Assembly (NCBI GenBank): GCA_965248925.1
Contig: CBDFLE010000006.1
Location: forward strand, 4,096,001-4,160,000
DNA: 64,000 bases
Direction: 5' to 3'
Origin: Candidatus Multivoradales bacterium
Lineage (GTDB): Bacteria > Acidobacteriota > Thermoanaerobaculia > Multivoradales > J023
Part shown: positions 7,822 through 21,905 of the stretch, one piece after another
Layout of the letters: every line of letters begins with the position of its first letter
Numbering within the stretch: position 1 is the stretch's first letter
Notes under the pieces: generated by a model
What the model was told of the DNA's origin: nothing
Databases searched by the model: none
What the model saw: the letters and a program-made list of their open reading frames with translations, nothing else
Translations under genes and position numbers: made by a program

Positions 7822-7893
7822 GCTGATTGAGGTGCCAGTCACATTTGTGATTGAGGTGCCTGCTGATTGAGGTGCCAGTCACATTTGTGATTG
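7822..7893. repeat. 32-bp direct repeat, two copies with a 40-bp period (REP-like)
   Basis: GCTGATTGAGGTGCCAGTCACATTTGTGATTG at 7822-7853 and 7862-7893, with a partial TGATTGAGGTGCC copy overlapping the junction. Confidence 0.85.
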
Positions 7894-10800
7894 GAGATTC
7901 GTTTCAAGACCTGATCACGGTCGCCGCGTCGAATGGCGGGACGAACGTACCGGTGACGCTGAGCTGGGGTTCGAACCTAGTGATCTCGGGTCAGACGGCA
8001 ACTGCAATCGTGGTGGCGGGCGTTGGGGGAAACCTGTTGCCGACCGATCCGGCAGGGACGCTGACCGCGTCGACGAGCCTTCCCTTCGACACCTTCAGTC
8101 TGATCTACCAAAACGGCCCGGACGACCCGATTAACGAGGGAGGGGCCGGGGTGAGCAACGGACATTCAGTGCGTATACCCGGCTTCGACTTCTGCGTCGA
8201 AGACACGCCGCCGGATCTCGAGATCGTCAAGACCGCGAGTCCGGCCGGCGCCGTGTCGCCCGGCGACACGATCACCTACACGATCGAGGTCACCAACAAC
8301 GGGCCGGGCAGCGCCACCGCCGTCACCGTCACCGACACCTTGCCCACCGGGGTCACCTACGTGCCGGGCTCGAGCTCGGCGACGTATTGGGTCGATCAGA
8401 TCACCGTCGTACCGGGCAGTTTTACCCACAACTACGGCGGCGCCACCTTCGACATCGCCGGTTTGAGCCAGACGTTCGACACCACCGGCAGCATTCCGGC
8501 CGGCGCCACGCTGACGTCGTACGAATTCACTGTCACCGGCAGCACGGTGGATTTCCTGAGCGACATCTCGTTGGCCGCGACCTATCCCGGCGGCACCGCC
8601 TATTCGTTGGCGGCCGGCAGCTTCGGCGGCGGTGGCCCGGGGGCGTTTAACGAAACCCGTGGCCCTGATCCCCTTGCAGGATCAGCCGAGGGGGTGTATC
8701 AGCTCATATGGGGAGATGTCTTCGACGGCGTCGGCGGCGACGACAACACGATCACCGCGGCGTCGTTCACCATCAACCACGAAACCACAACGGTGGGGCT
8801 AAGGCTGCGGGTGACCAATCCGTCGGCCGCGGCGCCCGGTCTGGTCACCGCCACGGTGCCCGAAGCCGGGGGCATCGATCTCGAGCCCGGCGAGACCATG
8901 ACGGTCACGTTCCAGGTCACCGTCGACGATCCGGCCCCCGGCGGCATCACCCAATTCCTTAACACCGCCGCGGCCGCGGCCACCGGCGTGCCGCCAGTCA
9001 GCGACACCGCGACCAATCCCCTCGGCGGCGCCGACGTAGCGGTGACCAAGACCTTGCTCACCCCGGGTACCTGCAGTGCGGGCCAGCAGGTGACCTACTT
9101 GGTGGCGGTGACCAACAACGGGCCGCTCGTCGCCACCAACGTGGTGGTGAGTGACACCCCATCCAACGTGATCATCCAGTGCGTCTCGAGCGCGAGCTGC
9201 GCGGCCTTCCCCTGCACCATCCCGAGCTTGGCCGTCGGTGCCACCGAGACCATCACGGTGGTGGGAGTGATCGGTGCCATCGGCGTGTTCGAGAACGCGG
9301 TGAGCGTCGCCGCCGACCAGGCCGACAGCGATCTCACCAACAACTCGGACCAAACCTCACACCTCGCCGGCAACGCGGTCAACGCGGCGTGCGAGTTCGA
9401 CAACGTGGCCTTCGTCAGCGCCGACACCAACGATCCCAAACCGGCCGATAACGTGGACGCCACGGGCAATGGTGGCTCGGCGTGTGCCGTCGACCTGGCG
9501 ATCACCAAGAGTGCGTCGCCGGATCCGGTGGCGGTGGGCGAGACCCTGACCTACACCCTGACCGTGACCAACAACGGGCCCGACGGTGCCACCTCGGTGG
9601 TGGTGACCGATCCCCTGCCGTCGCAGGTGACATTCCAGGGTGCGGTCCCGATCCAGGGTACGTGCAGCGAAGCCGGCGGCACTGTCAGCTGCAATATCGG
9701 GGACCTGGCGAACGGCGCTACGGCGACCGTCACCGTCACCGTCATCCTCGACACCACCGCTGTCTCTGACCCGCCGTGTCCGGCCGGCAGCATGAGCAAC
9801 GTGGCCACGGTCGGCGCTACCGAGTCCGATACCGACAGCGCCAATGATCAGGCCCAGATCTGCACCGCTACCCAGGCCCAGCTGCGGGTGGTCAAGAGCC
9901 TGGTCCCGAATACCGACATCGGGACCTTCGATTTGCAGATCGCCGGCGTCACCTACGCTGCGGCGGTCGGCAACGGCGGCGATACCGGCTTCCAGGGCGT
10001 CGACGCGGGCACCCCGGTGACCTTCGGGGAGCTGGCGGTGAGCCCGGCGGCGCTCAACTCCTACGACGTGATCTTCCTGTGTGTCGATGGCCATGGCGAT
10101 GTGCTGGCGACCAGCAACGAGGTGGTCACCGGTACCGGCGCCACGGCCGACGTGACGATCCCGGCGGGCGGCGCCGTCACCACGCTCGACCAGCAGGTCA
10201 CCTGCACAGTCTCCAATATCCGCAAGGCGAACATCGCGATCACCAAGAACGCGACACCGGCGGACGAGACCAACTTCGATTTCATTAGTGTCAAGAGGGT
10301 GGGCCCGGGGCCCAACCAGATCGGCGACTTCACGCTCGACGGCGAGCTGGTCGATGGCGCCGACGCCGACAGCGTCAACAACCAGCTGAGCTTCCAGGTA
10401 TCCGCCAACCGGACCTACCAGGTCACCGAGCTGGTGCCGGCGGGGTGGGAGCTGACCGATATCTCCTGTACAGACAGCACCTCCAACTCGACGGTGGACG
10501 TGGCGGGCCAAACCGCGACGCTGGTGCTCGATCCGGGCGACACGCTGGTCTGTACGTTCTTCAACCGCCAGCTGAGCCAGCTGACAGGAACGGTGTGGCT
10601 GGACGTCGACGGCGACGGTGTCGAGGACAACGGCGAGCCGGGGATCGCCGGCGTCACGGTCTTCTTGTGCGACGCGTCAACGCCGGTGTGCGATGCCGGC
10701 ACGGAGATCGCCACGGCGGTGACCGATGCCGACGGCAACTACGTGTTCCCGGATCTGATGCCCGGCAACTACCAGGTCCAGGTGGACGACACCGATCCGG

Positions 10801-13795
10801 CGCTCGACGGTCTCCAGGGCTCACCCGGCAACGGGGTGGGCAACAGCGGCACCATCGCCTTGCCGCCGGGCGGCACCGAAGTGGTCGATTTCGGCTACCT
10901 GCCGGACGCCGGCACCGCCGCCGTCGAAGGCACAGTGTGGAGCGACGCCGACGGCGACGGCATCGAGGATCCGGACGAGGTGGGAATCGCCGGCGTCACG
11001 GTGCAGCTGTTCAATGCCGACGGCACCCCGGCGCTCGACAGCGGCGGGCAGCCGATCACCGCGATCACCGGCCCGGACGGCTCCTACTTACTCACCGGAA
11101 CGCCCGTCTTGATCGGCACCACGGTCACGGACGCGAGCGGTAACTACAGCTTCAACAACCTGCCTGACGGCGACTACGTGGTCGAAGTACAGACCGCCGG
11201 TACCGCGGTGGACGGCTATGACCAGACCACCCAGAACGCCACGGGCGGTGTCGAGCTGGTCACTCTCGCGGGGGCGGACTCCACGGACCACGACTTCGGT
11301 TTCTTCGACAGCGGGCTAGTGACCAACCCGGTGACCCTGGCGTCGTTCGAGGCGTCGGGCACCTCTTTCAGGTGGGCCACGGCGACCGAGAGCGGAAATG
11401 TCGGCTTTTTCCTGTGGGCCTGGAACCGGGAGACCGGCGACTGGCAGGCGATCAACGAATCGCTGATCGCGTCTGAGGCGGTCTACTCGACTGATCCGCA
11501 GCACTATGCCTACGACGCGGGCTTACTCCACCAGGGACCGTTCATGGTGGAAGATGTCGACATCTACGGCCGCTCGCGTTTCCACGGGCCGTTCGAGGCG
11601 GATCAGCGCTTCGGCCATAAGGTCGCCGCGCAGCCGATCGATTGGCTGGCGGTGCGCGTTGCCCACGAACGTGCCGCGCGGTCGCGGTCGGCCGCCAAAG
11701 CTGCATCGTCCGGGACCGCGTCCGGGGCCGAGCTGCTGGTTGCCCAAACCGGTCTTTACCGCGTCACCTACGAACAGCTGTTGGCCGGCGGTGTGGACTT
11801 TCGAGGAACGCTCAAGCGCCGCCTGGCGCTGCTCGGTCCGGACGGCCCGGTGCCGATGCGCGTCGAATCGCCGCAAGGGCGTTTCGGCCCCGGCGGCTGG
11901 CTCGAGTTCCTGGGTGAGGCCATGGAGTCTCTGTACACCGAGACCCAGGTCTACCGCCTGGTAGTCGATGCTGCCCAGGCGCTGCGGCCGGCGGTCGACC
12001 ACAAGCCGGTGAACCCCCGGGCGGTAGCCCCCACCTCGTACCTCGAGACTCTGGCGGTGGGCCAGGACCGCCTTTACAGCTTCGGCTCGCCGAACGGTGA
12101 CCCATGGTTCGACGCTCGGCTTCTCGCCTCGTCGCAGCCGGCCGAGAAGGTCTATCGCTTCGAACTCGACGGCTACCTGCCCGATCAGCGGGCGCCTGAG
12201 CTGCGGGTCGAGCTGTGGGGTGTGACCGATTGGCCCGCAGCCCCCGACCACCATGCCGAGGTGTCGGTGAACGCTACCGTGGTGGCTGAGGCCCTCTTCG
12301 ACGGCCTGAGCGAGCAAACGCTCAAGGCGACCCTCACCGGCCTGAGCGCTGACGGCTCCGAAGAGCTGGTCGTGCGCTTGCCCCACGACACCGGTGTCGG
12401 CTTCGATCTGGTCCATGTGGAAGGCTTCTCGATTATCTACCCCCGTGCCGTCATCGCCCGCGATGGCCGTCTGCGGCTGGAGGCCAGCAGCAAAGTGCTT
12501 GAGGTGCGTGGCATGCCGTCTCCCAAGGCCGTGGTCTACCGTCTCGAAGACGGCCAGCTGACCCGCATCGACGCGCTGCAGAGCACCCTCGAAGCAGACG
12601 GATACCGCCTGCGCTTCAACGGTACCGCCGGCATGCCTGCGACCTGTTGGGTGGCGGATGTTGCCGCCCTGCTGACTCCGCAGATCCGTCCTGGCGCGGC
12701 AGCGGTCGATCTGCTCGACCGAGAGGCCGAACTCTTGATCGTCGCGCATCCGAGCTTCCTGGCCGGCATCGAGCCGCTCGCTGCGGCCCGCCGTGACGAC
12801 GGCCTGAGCGTGCGGGTGGTGGATCTCGAAGATGTCTACGCGGCTTACAGTGGCGGTGTGATCGATCCCGAGGCGATCCGCTCCTACGTCGCAGACGCTC
12901 ATGCCCGGATTGCCACCCGCTACCTGCTCTTGGTCGGATCGGATACCTACGACTACCTCGACCATCTCGGTCTCGGGGGGATCAGCTTCGTGCCGACTCT
13001 CTACGGCGCCACCGACGACATTGTAAGCTTCGCGCCGATCGACACTCGATTCGGCGACATCGACGGTGACCATGTCCCGGAGGTCGCGGTGGGCCGGTTG
13101 CCCGTGCGCACCCCGGACGAGCTGGACACGATGGTGAGGAAGATCTTGGCCTACCCCGCCATGGCAGCCGAGCGAACCGCGGTGTTCGCGGCCGATGGCT
13201 ACGACGCGGCCAACGCTTACTCCTTCACCGCCGACAGCGAGAGCCTGGCCGCGACCCTGCCCGCATCTTGGCAGTTGACCCGCGCCTACATCGACCAGCT
13301 CGGCCTGGCAGGTGCCAAGGAGTTGCTCATCGACACCCTCGACGCGGGTGTCTCCCTGGCCAGCTTCTTCGGCCATTCGGGTCCCACGGTGTGGAGCTTC
13401 AGCGGCCTGCTGAGCGCTGGTGACGCCGCCGCGCTCGACAACCGAGGCCGGCCGACGGTGATCACCCAATGGGGCTGCTGGAATACCTACTATGTATCGC
13501 CGTACTACGAGACCATGGGCCACCAGCTCATGGCCGGCGGCGATCCGAGAAGCGATCGCGGCGCCGCCGCCGTGCTCGGTGCCTCTACCCTGACCACCGC
13601 GGAAGGCGAACGCGAACTCGCGGCCGTCTCGTGCCGCGGCTCTTCGTCCCCGGCAACCGTGTCGGCGACGCCATCGTCGCCGACAAGCGAGCCTTGGCCC
13701 GAGAGTTCGGAGTAGGTGGCAGGCTAGACGTGCTCCTCGGATGGAACTTGCTCGGAGACCCAACCCTGGACCTCGGCCAAGCCGCGGCGCCCTAG
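7851..13795 (+). CDS. Large surface protein: DUF11 repeats, SdrD B-like repeats and C-terminal C25 (gingipain-like) cysteine peptidase; frameshift near 13620, 5' end probably lost
   Basis: DLEIVKT/GDTITYTIEVTNNGP DUF11 units; GTVWLDVDGDG...EPGIAGVTV SdrD-B units; VAVGRLP, FFGHSG (His), QWGCWN (Cys); conserved WNLLGDP end lies in another frame ending at 13795. Confidence 0.8.
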
Positions 13796-14196
13796 ATCGT
13801 AGTCGCGGGTGGCTTCGAATCGGGAGATATCCATCTGTAGTCGAGCGATAGGGCACACAGTTGACGTCAAGGACGAGATACTGGGAGAGCCAGAGGACAC
13901 CGTTCAGGCCCATATGAGGGGACGACAGAGTTGCACACTCAATGGGTCGTCCCCCGTAGCCTTGCCTCATACCCCGCCGCGAAGTGTCTGGCACCGCCGC
14001 GGGTGGTGCCAGTGGTGGCACCACCCGGAACCCAGCCCAACCAAACCGGAAGGACCGCAAGAAGAATGCTGAAGCTGCCCGACAAGGATGAAGTTTCGAT
14101 GCCGGCCGGCAAGAGCTAGGAACAGCAGACGGTTTCAATGCAGCTGCGCCCGCCCTAGCTCCTCGGCGGCGGTTCATGACAGCAGGAACCGCACCC

Positions 14197-16683
14197 TCAT
14201 GGAAAGGGCTCGAGACGGATCTGATAACCGATCGTCACCGCCGGTTCATCGAACTTGGTCATCACCAGGTGCAGCTCGAAGTCGGTTCCAGGAACCACCG
14301 GCGACACCAGATTGACACTCCACTCGCGGACGGACCCGCCCACGGCCAGGTGCCGTCAGGTTGCTGGCGGATCGCGCTCCGTGGATAGGCCACGAGTGCT
14401 GGTAACATGAAGAGTTCGACTTCCGCCGACCAATTCCAAGATCACCGTGTTGTCGAAGATGATGTCGATGTCACTGATGTGATCCAGGTCGATGGTCGCG
14501 CAGCCCGACGTCGGATGGTCGAATTCGCAGGTCTGATCGGGGCGATCAATATCTCTCAACCCCAGCACCAACCTGCCACTGTCCGATGCCAGCAGATTGG
14601 GAAGTTGCCCGAAAATGTCGATCTTTCTGTGAAAGTTAGGGCTATTGAAGTCCACCGCGGCCAGCAGCTCGAACTGGCCCTCAGCCAGGAGTGTCGACCC
14701 GCCGACGGCAGGCAGGCAAACATCGATACTGGAATTGAAACCGAAGTCCGGGCCTACGTCCTTGACGCAGACCAACCCACCGGCGCACTCCGAGTCGTTA
14801 TCGCAGTCTCCCTGGCCGCGGCTGCAGGGGCCGCACTCGGTGCAGAAGCGGCCATGACCCGGCGGCCGAGGGCAGCTTCCACCACCGCCACCACCACCAC
14901 CACCACCGGTCCCGGCAAGGCAGACATCGACGGCGGGAGGGAAACCAAAGTCCGCACCAACATCGTTAACGCAGATCAGCCCGCTGGCACATTCCGAGTC
15001 GTTATCGCAATCCCCCTGGCCCTGTGTGCAGGGACCACATTCGGTGCAGAAACGGCCATGACCAGCCGGCCGAGAACAGCTTCCACCACCACCACCTCCT
15101 CCGCCGCCTCCGCCGCCACCGCCACCGCCGCCACCGCCGCCATCACCGGCAACGCAGACATCCACCGCCGGATTGAAACCAAAATCGACTCCGACATTGT
15201 TGGCACAGACCAGGCCTGGGGCACATTCGGCATTGCTGTCGCAGTCCCCCTGGCCAGCGGCGCAAGGCCCACACTCGGTGCAGAAACGGCCGTGACCAGC
15301 AGGACGGGAGCAGCTGTTACCGCCACCACCTCCGCCGCCACCTTCAGCCACGCAGACGTCGACGGCGGGAGGGAAACCGAACTGGCTGCCGACGTTGTCG
15401 GCGCAGCTCAGGCCAGCGAGGCATTCGAGGTCGCTGTCACAGTCGCCCTGTCCCTGCCCGCAAGGGCCACAAACAGTGCAGAACCGACCATTGCCAGGTG
15501 GCAGATCACAGTCCCTGGCGATAGCGTAGAGGAAACGCAGATCGGGCCGCTCAGCGTCGGCGAAGGCGATGGCGTCGTCGCTCACGGCAATCAGCGCAGG
15601 CTGGGCTCCTGCTGTCACTCCAAGCCAGGACCCTGTCTGAGTCGCGTCGATACGACCCAGGCTGTGGCGAATCTCACGACCGAGCAGAGCCATCGCGGCG
15701 CCTCGGCCACTGGCCAGCCAGCACTCGGCACCCTTGTTGAGCAGCACCTCGGCGCGAACGATCTGGTGAAACGGCTGGCCCTTCCAGGGATGCTCGGCAG
15801 GCTCGTACCAGACTCCGCTGAGCGCCAGGGTACCACCCTCTTGACAGTCGAAGCTGTCGCCGAGCAAGTCCGAGGAGGCGTCGAGATAGAGCACATTCGA
15901 TCCGCTGGCAGACTTGAACGGCAGACTGGTCAAGTCGCTAGCCAGCGCGCCTTGGAGGAGATCAATGGCGAAGAAGGGATCGCTCGACCAGAGCTCCAGA
16001 TTCCGAGAGAATGGCCCCAGATATTCGGCGACAGGGTCTGTAGCCAACCCATGAAGGTCCCACTGAACCGAGCCGCCATCGTCGAAGACCCGCCAGCGGA
16101 GGTTCACCGCCGAACTCTTCGTCGTCGTCAGGGCGCCAGCCAGCTCGACCGGTGACTCGACGAGATAGTCGGTCTTGACCTCCAGACCTTGGCTGGAGTC
16201 GCGCAGCCAGGCGAGGAAGCGCTCGGCGTGGCGATAGGGCCGCTGCTCAGTACCGCCCGGCGCCGCGGACCACAGCCGGCCCTGCTCGGAATCGACCCGC
16301 CAGAAGACACCTTGCGGAAAGTCGACCAGACGGTAGTGCTCGCTGCCACGGCGCAGGAAGAGCAATACCTCCTGACCGGGTGAGAAGACCGGTGCCCCCC
16401 AGATGTGGAGCACTCGGCCGCTCGATCCACGGCCGCCGGGAAATGACAGCCGCAGCACGGATCGAGCCACGTCACCAGCGATCAACGCCTCAATCCGCAC
16501 TTCCACCTCGGTGCGCGGACCCTGGGGAGTAGCGACAAACGCGACCTCGTCGACCACTCCCCGAACGATCAGCTCTGCCCGTTCAACCAGCCGCTCGTCC
16601 GCAACCTCGACGTAGCTGGTCGCCAGACTCGGCGCCACAAGACAGAGCATGCTCGCCAGAGCGAGCAGCACCTTGGTCGGCAT
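14197..16683 (-). CDS. Secreted protein with degenerate metzincin-like domain, four 8-Cys repeats with poly-Gly linkers and a C-terminal domain with an in-frame UGA at 14356-14358 (candidate selenocysteine); ends at 14356 if not read through
   Basis: Signal peptide; ORF 14356-16683 (775 aa); frame stays open 52 more codons after the UGA (RHLAVGGSVREWSVNLVSPVVPGTDFELHLVMTKFDEPAVTIGYQIRLEPFP). Confidence 0.75.
14325..14358 (-). promoter_or_regulatory. Candidate bacterial SECIS element
   Basis: mRNA UGA-CGGCACCUGGC-CGUGGGCG-GGUC-CGUCCGCG: 11-nt spacer, 8-bp stem with two G-U pairs, GGUC loop at nt 23-26 counting U of UGA as 1. Confidence 0.6.
14714..15511 (-). repeat. Four intragenic Cys-rich repeats separated by GGN-rich poly-Gly linkers
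   Basis: C-x2-P-x-G[HN]GRFCT[EV]CGPC-x2-GQGDCD-x3-EC-x2-GL-x-C-x3-VG-x2-FGF-x3-[VI]DVC repeated four times. Confidence 0.9.
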
Positions 16684-18011: not shown

Positions 18012-20543
18012 ATGACCCTCAACCACCACATTCTGCCAGCTGCCAACCCGAGCGCCAGGCTCAGCGGCTGGCGTCTATTGGCAGTCTGGGTGTTGATCTG
18101 CGCAACCGCGGCCTGCGGCACGGAAGAGCAGCTCCCCGAGGCCCCTGCCTTGGCCGGCGAGAGCATAGGGGATTTGGCGACCTCGCCAGATATTCGCTGT
18201 GGCCACCATCTCGAGCAAGGTGAGAATCAGTTGGCCCGCGCGGTCTGCGAGGAGGCGGTCGAGCAGGCTAGGCGGGACGCCAACCCGCGGCTCGAAGCCT
18301 CGGCGCTCAGCAAACTCGGCCAAGCCTGGCATGCGTCGGGCGATTTGCAGCGCGCCCTTGAACTCTACGGTCAGTCCCGTGACCTGGCGACCGCGGTTGG
18401 CGCGAGGGATTTGGCGACGGCTGCCGGGCACAACCTGGCGGTGTTGTTCGGTTCGGTAGGGCGCTACGACGATGCGGCTGAGCAGTTGCGGCGAGTAGTT
18501 TCGCAGCATGCTCCCGGTCCGGAACGGGCTGTGAGCACCATGACCTTCGGTCTGGCCCTGGTGGATAGTGGGCGGTTGCAGGAGGGCCTTGCTACCTACC
18601 ACCAAGCGCTCCAGCGACTGCGGGCTAGCGGCCAGACCGCCTACCTGGCGTTGACCCATGATCTGCGCGGCAAGTTGCTACTCCAGCTGGGTCGCCCGGA
18701 GGAGGCTCTAGCGCAGCATCAGCTGGCACTGCGGCTGATCAGAGAGACCGACGCCGTGCCCATCAAGGCCCATATTCACCTCAGCCTGGGCCTGCACTAT
18801 CAGCAGCGCGGCGACTGTGCGGCTGCCCGGCAATCCTTACGCCATGCCCGGCAGCTCTTCACCGAGCAGGGAAACGACGCCGCGGTGGCCGAGGGTGTGC
18901 CGGCAGAGGCACGTTGTCTGGCGTCGCAAGGCCACTGGCAGGAGGCTGAAGGTATATTGAATGAGGCGATGGAGAAGATCGAAGCGATGCGGGCTCGCCT
19001 TGCCCAACCCTCAATGCGGGGCGACTACCTGGGCTCCCGCTTTGGCATTTTTGGTACCGCGGTAGAGCTGGCCATGGAGCGTCATCGCGCCGAGCCTGGG
19101 GCTGGTCACGATGAGCGCGCCTTCGAACTCGCCGAAGGTGCTCGGGCTCGCACCCTGCTCGACCAACGGGTGAGGGTCGAACAGCGTTCGCGCTGGCGTT
19201 CCGACAGTGAGGAGGGGCGCCTGCGTCAGCGGCTCAGTGAGCTGGAAAATCGCCAGCTTCGTGCTCAGCTCGCTGGCCGCGAGCCAGCAGCGGAGTTGAA
19301 TCAGCGGATCGAGCAGCTCTACCAGCGCATCGATCGTCTCACCGGTCCCTTGCCACTCACCACGCCGCCCCTTGACTTGGCGACGATCCAAGCGGAGATC
19401 CTCGAGCCTGGGACCGTCCTCTTGAGCTTTCTATTGGGCAGCGAGCGCAGTCATCTGTGGTGGATCGAGCACAACGATCTGCACAGCTTCGAGCTGCCGG
19501 GTGTCGAGATCATCGATCGCTTGGCGCGCCAGGTACACCGCTCTTTGGCCAGTCCGGCGGATGCTGCCGGCGCTGACCAGCGCGAGCTCGATTTGAGGGA
19601 TCTCAGTGGTTTGTTGCTCGGCCCGGTGGCCGAGCGGTTAGCAGGGCAGCGCCTGCTGGTGGCGGCCGATGGCGCGCTGCATTACTTGCCCTTTGCGGTG
19701 CTTGCCCATCCGCTTACCGGCGAGCCCCTGGTGATGGAGCACGAGGTGGTTCACCTGCCCGCCGCGTCGTTGCTGGTGGCGCAGCGGCGGCGGCTAGTCG
19801 ATCGTTCGCCGGCCAAAGGTTGGTTAGCGGCGATCGGCGATGCAGTCTTCGATGCTGACGATCCCAGGTTGTCGGCAGCCGGTGCTGGCGTTGTGGTGCC
19901 GGGAACCGAGGAAACAGCTACGGCCAGCCGGGCGCTTGCCGGCCTGGGCATTGCGGGCTTGCGGCGATTGCCATTCTCGGGTCGTGAGGTAGAAGCCATT
20001 GGCAAGTCAGGCAAGCGAGAGGATGAGGTACTGCCCGCCACTGGCTTCGCCGCCACCCGCGAGCTGCTGCTCGGCGGCGGTGTGCGAGGTTTTCGCATTA
20101 TCCATCTGGCCACGCACGGGGTGTTCGACACTAGCCATCCTGAACGGTCCGGCTTGGTGTTCTCGCTTTTTGATCGCCAGGGGCGCCCGATCGATGGTTT
20201 GGTGCAGGCTCACGACATCACTGACCTCGACTTGCCCGCCGAGTTGATCGTGCTGAGCGCTTGCCGGACGGCACTTGGCAAAGAAGTACGTGGCGAGGGT
20301 TTGATGGGCCTCACCCAAGCGTTCTTTCAGGCCGGTGCCGCTCGCTTGATAGTCAGTTTCTGGCGCATTCCCGATCGTTCGACCGCCGAGTTGATGGGTC
20401 GTTTCTACCGTCACCTGGGTGAGGGCGGCCTGGCCCCAGGGGCGGCACTCCAGCAGGCCCAACGCTCGATGTATCAGGAGGGGTACGCCCCGCACCAATG
20501 GGCCAGCATGGCCCTGATCGGCGATTGGCGAGCCTTCGAATAG
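18012..20543 (+). CDS. TPR-CHAT (caspase-like) protease, possible lipoprotein
   Basis: Hydrophobic leader ending TAAC; TPR helices; AFELAEGARARTL, ADGALHYLPFAVL, IHLATHG (His), VLSACRT (Cys), GEGLMGL, WASMALIG. Confidence 0.9.
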   Translation: MTLNHHILPAANPSARLSGWRLLAVWVLICATAACGTEEQLPEAPALAGESIGDLATSPDIRCGHHLEQGENQLARAVCEEAVEQARRDANPRLEASALSKLGQAWHASGDLQRALELYGQSRDLATAVGARDLATAAGHNLAVLFGSVGRYDDAAEQLRRVVSQHAPGPERAVSTMTFGLALVDSGRLQEGLATYHQALQRLRASGQTAYLALTHDLRGKLLLQLGRPEEALAQHQLALRLIRETDAVPIKAHIHLSLGLHYQQRGDCAAARQSLRHARQLFTEQGNDAAVAEGVPAEARCLASQGHWQEAEGILNEAMEKIEAMRARLAQPSMRGDYLGSRFGIFGTAVELAMERHRAEPGAGHDERAFELAEGARARTLLDQRVRVEQRSRWRSDSEEGRLRQRLSELENRQLRAQLAGREPAAELNQRIEQLYQRIDRLTGPLPLTTPPLDLATIQAEILEPGTVLLSFLLGSERSHLWWIEHNDLHSFELPGVEIIDRLARQVHRSLASPADAAGADQRELDLRDLSGLLLGPVAERLAGQRLLVAADGALHYLPFAVLAHPLTGEPLVMEHEVVHLPAASLLVAQRRRLVDRSPAKGWLAAIGDAVFDADDPRLSAAGAGVVVPGTEETATASRALAGLGIAGLRRLPFSGREVEAIGKSGKREDEVLPATGFAATRELLLGGGVRGFRIIHLATHGVFDTSHPERSGLVFSLFDRQGRPIDGLVQAHDITDLDLPAELIVLSACRTALGKEVRGEGLMGLTQAFFQAGAARLIVSFWRIPDRSTAELMGRFYRHLGEGGLAPGAALQQAQRSMYQEGYAPHQWASMALIGDWRAFE

Positions 20544-20799: not shown

Positions 20800-21645
20800 T
20801 TAGCACACTCTCATTTCTTGCTTGCTCATCGCACCAGCAAACTCAGCCGGCGGTAGGTTCCCCAACGAGCTGTGGGGACGTACATGGTTGTAGTCTATTC
20901 GCCAGTGCTCGATCTTGCGGCGAGCGTCTACTAAGTTCGTGAACCAGTGCAGGTTGCGGCACTCATCTCGCAGGCGGCCATTGAAGCTCTCCACAATACA
21001 GTTTTCGATGGGCTTGCCGGGCCGAATAAACAACAAGGTGACGGCGTTCTGGTAGGCCCACTCATCCAAGGCTCTGCTAGTAAACTCCGGGCCGTTGTCC
21101 ACCACAATCCGGTGCGGGTATCCTCGACTCTCGGCAACGCGATCTAGTACTCGGGCCACACGATGACCCGACAGGGACGTATCGACCTCGATAGCTACAC
21201 ACTCTCTCGTTGCCTCGTCCACAACGTTGAGAGCTCGGAAGCAGCGTCCACCTGCCAAAGTGTCGCTGATGAAGTCCATCGACCACTGCTCATTGGCTTG
21301 CTCAGGAACGACTCGCGGCAAGCGGTTTGCCTGCGCTACTCGCTTGCGCTTCCGGCGCCGCACAGCGAGCCCCAGGGCCTTGTAGAGCCGATAGACGCGC
21401 TTATGGTTGATCTGCTTGCCTTCGCGTCGTAGCAGCACATGCAGGCGCCTGTAGCCAAAGCGTGGCCGCTCGCCAGCGAGCTCTAGGAGTCTTTCCACTA
21501 CCTGTTCTTCATCAGGATTCTCTTGGCGGTGATAGCGCACCATCGAGCGACAGGTAGTCGCCAGACGGCACGCTCGGCGCTCACTACAACTGCGGCGCTC
21601 CCGGATCCACTCGACTGCCTCACGCCGGGTCGCGGGCGTCACCAT
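20800..21645 (-). CDS. IS3 transposase OrfB (DDE integrase core)
   Basis: [51 protein letters not shown]. Confidence 0.93.
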
Positions 21646-21905
21646 TTTCTCGACAGGGCTTCTTTGAGCACTTGCTTGTCCAGAGTTAACTCGGCAACAG
21701 CGACCTTTAGCCGCCGATTCTCCTGCTCTAGCTCTCGCAGTCGACGCGCCTCGCTGACCCCCATGCCACCGAACTTCGACTTCCACCGGTAGTAGGTTCC
21801 TTGGGACACGCCGTGTTCCCGGCATACGTCCTTCACTCGCTGCCCCGACTCCACTTGGTCGAGAACTCGGATGATCTGCTCTTCACTAAATCGGCTCTTG
21901 CGCAT
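21639..21905 (-). CDS. IS3 transposase OrfA (HTH and leucine zipper)
   Basis: [46 protein letters not shown]; ends AGAAAATGGTGA overlapping orfB in the -1 frame. Confidence 0.93.

Follow-up and report, generated by a model that had tools for sequence, protein, structure and literature searches.

The window examined here, a 64,000-nucleotide (nt) stretch of contig CBDFLE010000006.1 from the assembly of a Candidatus Multivoradales bacterium (GCA_965248925.1; hereafter the host), carries on its minus strand a gene with an in-frame UGA that very probably encodes a selenoprotein. The minus-strand open reading frame (ORF) at 14356..16683 consisted of 775 codons (14359-16683) and a TGA (14356-14358), and its C-terminal end was ERDPPAT. 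Past this TGA, the same frame was open for another 52 codons (RHLAVGGSVREW...RLEPFP) until a second TGA at 14197-14199. An initial annotation of the window had proposed that the apparent stop is a selenocysteine (Sec) codon followed by a selenocysteine insertion sequence (SECIS) hairpin similar to that of E. coli fdhF, and the in-frame UGA, the 775-residue ORF and the 52 further open codons were all present as it had described; they lie on the minus strand. The features of the gene that bear on this proposal were as follows.

14197..16683, minus strand: predicted full selenoprotein gene, 828 residues (775 + Sec + 52) and the terminal stop TGA, as translated with TGA = U
14356..14358, minus strand: UGA-776, very probably read as Sec; TGA at the same alignment column in homologues
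14325..14344, minus strand: candidate SECIS hairpin, 8-bp stem and GGUC tetraloop, 11 nt past the UGA; encodes V-G-G-S-V-R
14197..14199, minus strand: true stop TGA, without a SECIS-like hairpin after it
14200..14691, minus strand: putative Sec-containing beta-sandwich domain, residues 665-828, with Sec as domain residue 112 (from alignment, AlphaFold2 model and profile matches)
14500..14529, minus strand: conserved Cys pair C719 and C728 (TCEFDHPTSGC, residues 718-728), already noticed in the initial annotation; both Cys invariant in 11/11 aligned homologues

The hairpin lay where it had been reported and consisted, on the minus strand, of a spacer (14345-14355), a 5' arm (CGUGGGCG, 14337-14344), the GGUC loop (14333-14336) and a 3' arm (CGUCCGCG, 14325-14332). 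With the U of the UGA counted as 1, GGUC occupied nt 23-26. Searches of the bSECISearch type reportedly look for a stem-loop directly downstream whose apical loop contains G and U and lies about 16-37 nt from the UGA, and the window loop falls within this range. The fdhF element cited in the initial annotation was verified on NC_000913.3, where the UGA is codon 140 and GGUC (nt 22-25) is in the apical loop. An Rfam search of 14100-14450 at E <= 10 returned chance matches only (RT-15, Six3os1). Contigs from four runs of one sample, which may be the window's own source, matched 14100-14800 with 0 differences; because these separately assembled contigs were identical across the site, the TGA is no assembly slip.

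Hairpins with a GGTC tetraloop and 6 or more bp numbered 382 in the host genome; 38 of them had a TGA 19-26 nt upstream. Among these 38, only that of the window followed a long open frame, which extended 822 codons upstream and 52 downstream. Seen in one sequence, the window hairpin is no more than chance, and a single hairpin from a single GC-rich sequence, the basis of the initial annotation, was too little by itself; comparative data make the hairpin far more than that. Eleven of the 38 were copies of one repeat: host contigs C4 and C5 (e.g. C4:157610-283996) carried at least 11 near-identical elements in which a TGA was followed 20 nt on by a 6-bp GGTC-loop hairpin. This element is a dispersed repeat and not a SECIS.

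In the 60 nt past the terminal TGA, the fold had a z of +1.11 and no GGUC loop was found. A second Sec at this codon was considered and rejected: the tails past the second stop were unconserved, and TAA or TAG ended 37 of the 54 distinct homologue copies. The frame past the terminal TGA (14158-14196, minus strand) held 13 Cys-rich codons (GCGSCCHEPPPRS) and then TAG; these codons were taken as chance because they were unconserved in homologues.

Comparison of homologous DNA showed TGA at the same column in 65 of the 67 loci that spanned the site (17/18 from genomes and 48/49 from metagenomes). When the C-terminal 191 residues were used as query against 41 related genomes, 11/11 full-domain matches had exactly one in-frame TGA, and these TGAs fell in one column (...PEPDGP-U-DHSGVGGSA..W...). 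In 300 genomes of the order, a profile search found 16 site-spanning matches, 15 of them with one TGA; the sixteenth (L052, on G122:C267) had CGA at the site. In a sample of 401 genomes from the phylum, matches came from 3 genomes, each with TGA; two further loci were gained in this way. The metagenome scan was seeded only with seven non-Sec homologues (a 7-sequence alignment), so that its query could not favour TGA. It yielded 53 loci, of which 49 spanned the site with 48 TGA and one CGG (L096). The metagenome motif was G-U-P-H-T/S-A-V-G-G-S-A, and the segment after U measured 43-57 residues in nearly all metagenome copies, as in the window.

Searched with a profile, 1.84 billion protein representatives yielded 149 matching proteins, of which 73 stop at the site, 35 start just past it (at the GTG of VGGS), 25 span it and 16 are other fragments. 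In GenBank, both halves of homologues were stored separately as 'hypothetical protein', which is the truncation by standard annotation that had been anticipated. The residue at the site was tallied in 24 read-through proteins, P0013 (a 4072-residue repeat protein) being left out. Cys was found in five of them (P0002, P0004, P0042, P0069 and P0107), which split into at least two subgroups, and 18/24 read-through forms were one base change from TGA. By eye, an extra Cys stood within the last one to three residues in 5/5 Cys forms and in 0/19 of the other read-through forms; no Cys followed U in 51 of the 54 distinct Sec forms. Two Trp forms retained VGGS, and in these TGA may be read under another code.

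The 72-nt regions after the UGA of 50 sequences aligned without gaps, with the GGUC loop at a fixed distance. The fraction of paired stem cells was 97.4%, 91.2% and 91.1% in alignments of 11, 17 and 50 sequences, compared with 31-54% in a control in which the partners were slid by 1-3 columns; 0/500 shuffles matched the observed paired fraction or covariation score. The conserved core of the hairpin was 6-7 bp, the seventh pair holding in 27/50 sequences. Compensatory changes were seen at 3-4 stem pairs, as in the 50-sequence alignment at pairs 22-39 (GC 22, CG 5), 26-35 (GC 43, AU 4) and 27-34 (CG 46, UA 2). One stem base pair couples a Gly-to-Asp with an Ala-to-Val amino-acid change, a coupling for which selection on the protein offers no easy explanation. 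At least 6 of 7 pairs together with GGTC were present in 41/47 metagenome copies, and the hairpin was gone in both Arg-codon loci (L052, CGA; L096, CGG). The conserved UGA, the Cys forms and the covarying hairpin thus support the selenoprotein proposal.

The initial annotation had suggested looking for selA, selB, selC and selD in the host. SelA (431.7 bits), the SelB wing domain (67.8 bits) and SelD (282 bits) were encoded, together with one tRNA-Sec(UCA), which was the sole UGA-reading tRNA among 48. TGA was the commonest stop of the host and closed 1037 of the 1672 open frames of at least 500 codons, while an inspection of conserved host genes for internal TGA revealed none; the host therefore uses the standard genetic code. 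A search of the host genome for paralogues of the domain found none. SelA was present in 277/300 genomes of the order (a tally that includes the unpublished genome G126, which enters into none of the other claims), and its co-occurrence with the domain is for this reason uninformative.

Conservation downstream of the UGA, also proposed as a check, was equal to that upstream, the majority-residue fraction being 0.67 downstream and 0.65 upstream of the site. From the alignment of 11 sequences, AlphaFold2 predicted one beta-sandwich (pLDDT 90, pTM 0.86) of 11 strands, four of them past Sec; in this model, termination at the UGA would leave half a domain, since four of the eleven strands are encoded after Sec. 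Sec was placed directly before a strand, and the motif consisted of a Pro-rich loop, U-x-H, 3 residues, (V/L)GGS, 3 residues and W. The upstream Cys pair was invariant also in the alignment that includes non-Sec forms. It looks structural because it is kept with or without Sec, and C719-C728 is probably a structural disulfide.

The domain could be assigned to no known family, as the initial annotation had also stated for selenoprotein families. In Pfam and NCBIfam 20.0, 0/11 domain members matched at E <= 0.1, and 0/9 non-Sec homologues had a meaningful Pfam score. A profile search of the PDB with the Sec domain gave a best E of 0.39, and Foldseek of the Sec-domain model against the PDB returned nothing at E <= 1e-3. 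A wide VIA-align search found generic beta-sandwiches only (best Z 7.1, root-mean-square deviation 3.9 A over 107 residues), and a search of the ESM Atlas with the natural Cys-form homologue P0004 gave no usable match.

Most members, which came from Acidobacteriota genomes and from metagenomes, were free-standing and small (about 200-240 residues), being putatively secreted proteins or lipoproteins; a lipoprotein-type signal was recognized by eye at the start of at least 24 of 48 metagenome copies. Other members carried Calx-beta or type IX secretion tails. The short Sec proteins L018, L020 and L022-L024 ended in a C-terminal tag of about 20 residues (FADGFESGDTSAWS, about four residues and the stop), and the same tag ended the unrelated secreted proteins L049 and L053 in related genomes. 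This tag may be a lineage-specific sorting signal.

Taken together, the data make it highly probable that UGA-776 is decoded as Sec in the window gene. In the proposed mechanism, which is that of E. coli fdhF, the hairpin 11 nt past the UGA would recruit SelB carrying Sec-tRNA(Sec), the UGA would be read as Sec instead of stop, and the last 52 codons would be translated. The product would be one exported protein of 828 residues in which a degenerate metzincin-like domain and four Dickkopf-like repeats precede the Sec domain. The actual insertion of Sec, the export and the function are what we infer here.

Several observations weigh against this reading. The energy of the window hairpin was ordinary for its GC content: the 60-nt fold had -24.6 kcal/mol (z = -0.65), and 53/200 shuffles folded as well. 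The conservation of the stem is in part protein-level, since the stem overlaps conserved codons. The consensus helix was continuous, with unpaired bases only below it, and the bulged U of the E. coli type was not seen. Six of the 47 metagenome copies deviated (loops GUCU or GGUU, or shifted hairpins), and the genome copy L045 had a GGAC loop. A second host selenoprotein was not found in the two families examined (FdhA was absent and SelD had no TGA), and the Sec-form genome G122 (86% complete) gave no SelA match. In 19 of the 24 read-through homologues, the site held a residue other than Sec or Cys (G 5, R 3, S 3, W 2, H 2, A 2, T 1, N 1). Part of the family can therefore do without Sec or Cys at this place, as one would not usually expect of a catalytic Sec. 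Any guess at function is limited as well, because the position of the motif is its sole basis.

It is unlikely that the family, although a genuine selenoprotein family, has already been described under another name. Large automated surveys exist (deep-Sep and BSepDB), and their supplementary tables might list it; in the literature as far as available to us, including Table 1 of a 2026 review (PMC13188914), deep-Sep and BSepDB, the family was not described. BSepDB, according to the part accessible here, was built by homology to known families. Nearly all of the 119 families in the review table carry Pfam or NCBIfam model ids of the kind that the 11 domain members failed to match, and in the part of the table at hand none had the motif or description of the window family. 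The GenBank name of both halves also speaks against an earlier description. By these comparisons, the Sec domain family is very probably a genuine and previously uncatalogued selenoprotein family.

Read-through of the UGA without Sec is very unlikely. In this reading, the hairpin could stimulate the near-cognate insertion of Trp, Cys or Arg, or recoding could occur locally and independently of SelB, and some homologues do have other residues at the site (G, R, S, W, H, A, T and N). The hairpin, however, matches the fdhF element bound by SelB in loop and spacing, the host has the full Sec machinery with tRNA-Sec as its sole UGA decoder, and Sec/Cys pairs exist among the homologues. We know of no established bacterial mechanism for hairpin-stimulated non-Sec read-through of this kind.

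An ordinary stop, with the protein ending at residue 775 and the 52 codons untranslated or expressed as a small ORF from the GTG of VGGS, is highly improbable. Gene callers do split the homologues in this way, as the 73 representatives ending at the site and the 35 starting past it show, and TGA is the usual stop of the host. Such a stop would nevertheless cut the predicted beta-sandwich after 7 of 11 strands, in the face of equal conservation on both sides and of the 24 homologues in which Cys or other sense codons join the halves, and it gives no reason for TGA at one column in 65/67 loci of distant lineages with an in-register hairpin. A nonsense mutation or sequencing error in a decaying gene, for which a possibly frameshifted large neighbouring gene and an integrase gene 4 kb away could be cited, is hardly credible given the four identical contigs, the TGA common to 64 other loci and the 52 codons without further stop or frameshift, and it is already contradicted by the homologues, in which sense codons were not the rule.

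With UGA-776 read as Sec, the window gene resembles fdhF in its in-frame UGA, in the GGUC apical loop (nt 22-25 in fdhF and nt 23-26 in the window) and in the presumed dependence of recoding on SelB. It differs in several respects. FdhF is a cytoplasmic molybdoenzyme, whereas the window protein is an unrelated, predicted exported beta-sandwich; the window stem is a continuous G+C-rich helix of 6-8 bp, without an evident counterpart of the bulged U that the fdhF SECIS has below its apical helix; and the window host has no fdhA-type selenoprotein. The recoding mechanism is thus already known, and what is new, as judged by comparison, is the protein family and its predicted exported, partner-less Sec.

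The part of the 2026 review available to us (PMC13188914) counts 119 prokaryotic selenoprotein families, mostly cytoplasmic and thiol-oxidoreductase-like. Predicted exported or envelope selenoproteins among the entries of its Table 1 accessible here are the DUF1573 'UGC' protein, the FCYXU-type TonB-dependent receptor, the ExtKL cytochrome and the GSU2204 outer-membrane protein. As far as these entries go, the window family is similar to them in having a non-thioredoxin fold, in its predicted place outside the cytoplasm and in being known from sequence only. It is unlike them in that their Pfam/NCBIfam models do not match it and in that it has U-x-H without a neighbouring Cys, and not UxxC, CxxU or CU. 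The MerB-like selenoprotein SaoL (Haft and Gwadz), in the part of that report at hand, has a CU dipeptide, cytoplasmic organometallic chemistry and a conserved gene neighbourhood; in this comparison the window family has a different fold and no conserved gene neighbourhood. Jelly-roll and P-domain modules (TPP II 3lxu, furin P domain 4omc, carbohydrate-binding modules (CBMs) and GOLD domains) share the general beta-sandwich arrangement of the Sec domain and are often the C-terminal accessory module of secreted enzymes. Their Z < 8 is the stated background of VIA-align, they have no sequence similarity to the Sec domain, and none carries Sec.

As to function, an exposed lone selenol with a His two residues later on the same strand face could, as a tentative suggestion from the motif, act outside the cytoplasm, either by binding a soft metal or metalloid or as a redox nucleophile that resists oxidation. 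It is possible, though doubtful, that this is the first selenoprotein family made up mainly of small exported lipoproteins, which would have a jelly-roll-like fold, a lone Sec without partner Cys and a Sec-x-His metal or nucleophile site. The advantage of Sec would then be that an unpaired thiol could not last outside the cell, and the SECIS would dictate the protein's own VGGS motif, which would be relaxed wherever the UGA is lost.

Few selenoprotein families exist, and every new one reveals a place in biology where selenium is needed in preference to sulfur. The present one is unusually well backed by comparison alone and lies outside the usual folds and the UxxC/CxxU motifs. It is widespread in environmental Acidobacteriota-like genomes and has been consistently missed by public databases, its members being stored as two fragments. 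With a profile built from the family alignment, every detectable member would be annotated correctly, and biochemistry would gain a clean target; the natural series of Sec forms, Cys forms with a C-terminal Cys, and Arg, Gly or Ser forms lets one ask what the selenium is for.

The remainder of the window protein, upstream of the Sec domain, comprised the following parts.

16618..16683, minus strand: putative signal peptide (MPTKVLLALASMLCLVAPSLA|TS), about residues 1-22, recognized by eye from the translation
15484..16617, minus strand: N-terminal domain, putative distant relative of HExxHxxGxxH (metzincin-type) peptidases, from alignment with P0152 and P0153
14713..15513, minus strand: four Cys-rich repeats (G[HN]GRFCT.CGPC...GDCD...C...VDVC), matched by Pfam Dickkopf_N

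The homologues P0152 and P0153 carried the full metzincin motif at the aligned place (HELGHSLGAAHS and HELGHTLGLAHS) and had weak Pfam matches to M10/M12/M57; the N-terminal domain of the window copy had no Pfam match. Its degenerate motif, REIRHSLGRID (residues 336-346, 15646-15678, minus strand), has lost two of the three His of HExxHxxGxxH and retained the Glu, and is short of a zinc-binding motif. This part of the protein may be an inactive peptidase-like domain. AlphaFold2 on the N-terminal 381 residues (3 sequences only) gave a pLDDT of 38.5, and the model was not used.

The Cys-rich repeats matched Dickkopf_N (PF04706) in 3 stretches with an E of 4e-9 and 37.1 bits against a cut-off of 25, and were joined by poly-Gly linkers of 8, 20 and 10 Gly. 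These repeats and the signal-like N-terminus fit the description 'secreted, multi-disulfide' of the initial annotation. A phmmer search of the 775-residue part against the PDB found only matches of the poly-Gly linker to single-chain variable fragment (scFv) chains. Short matches to similar Cys-rich repeats were found in further large secreted proteins, both in the host and in its relatives. At L061 (G015:C94, 3765-6835, minus strand), a GDSL-lipase gene with Dickkopf-like repeats lay directly upstream of a short free-standing Sec gene; because the window holds repeats and Sec domain in one gene, the G015 genes and the window gene form a fusion/fission pair.

Comparison of the gene neighbourhoods of the homologue loci showed no partner common across lineages. 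Recurrent neighbours were seen only among closely related loci: nucleotide cyclase (4), alpha/beta hydrolase (3) and molybdopterin oxidoreductase (2). In the closely related metagenome loci L098, L099, L106 and L117, the Sec lipoprotein gene was immediately preceded on its own strand by a class III adenylate/guanylate cyclase gene.

At 7851-13795 of the window (plus strand), a 1954-codon gene with DUF11, SdrD_B and SpaA-like repeats followed by Peptidase_C25 ended at 13715. An overlapping frame (13469-13795) was open past the end of this gene, and the C25 match stopped at profile position 315 of 374; a Pfam search with the 108-residue piece found nothing. A frameshift near the 3' end of the Peptidase_C25 gene is possible. 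Beyond the Sec gene lay genes for a TPR-CHAT protein (18012-20543, plus strand) and an rve-type integrase (20800-21825, minus strand). In G036 (L063), a CHAT/TPR gene was located about 3.6 kb from the Sec gene.

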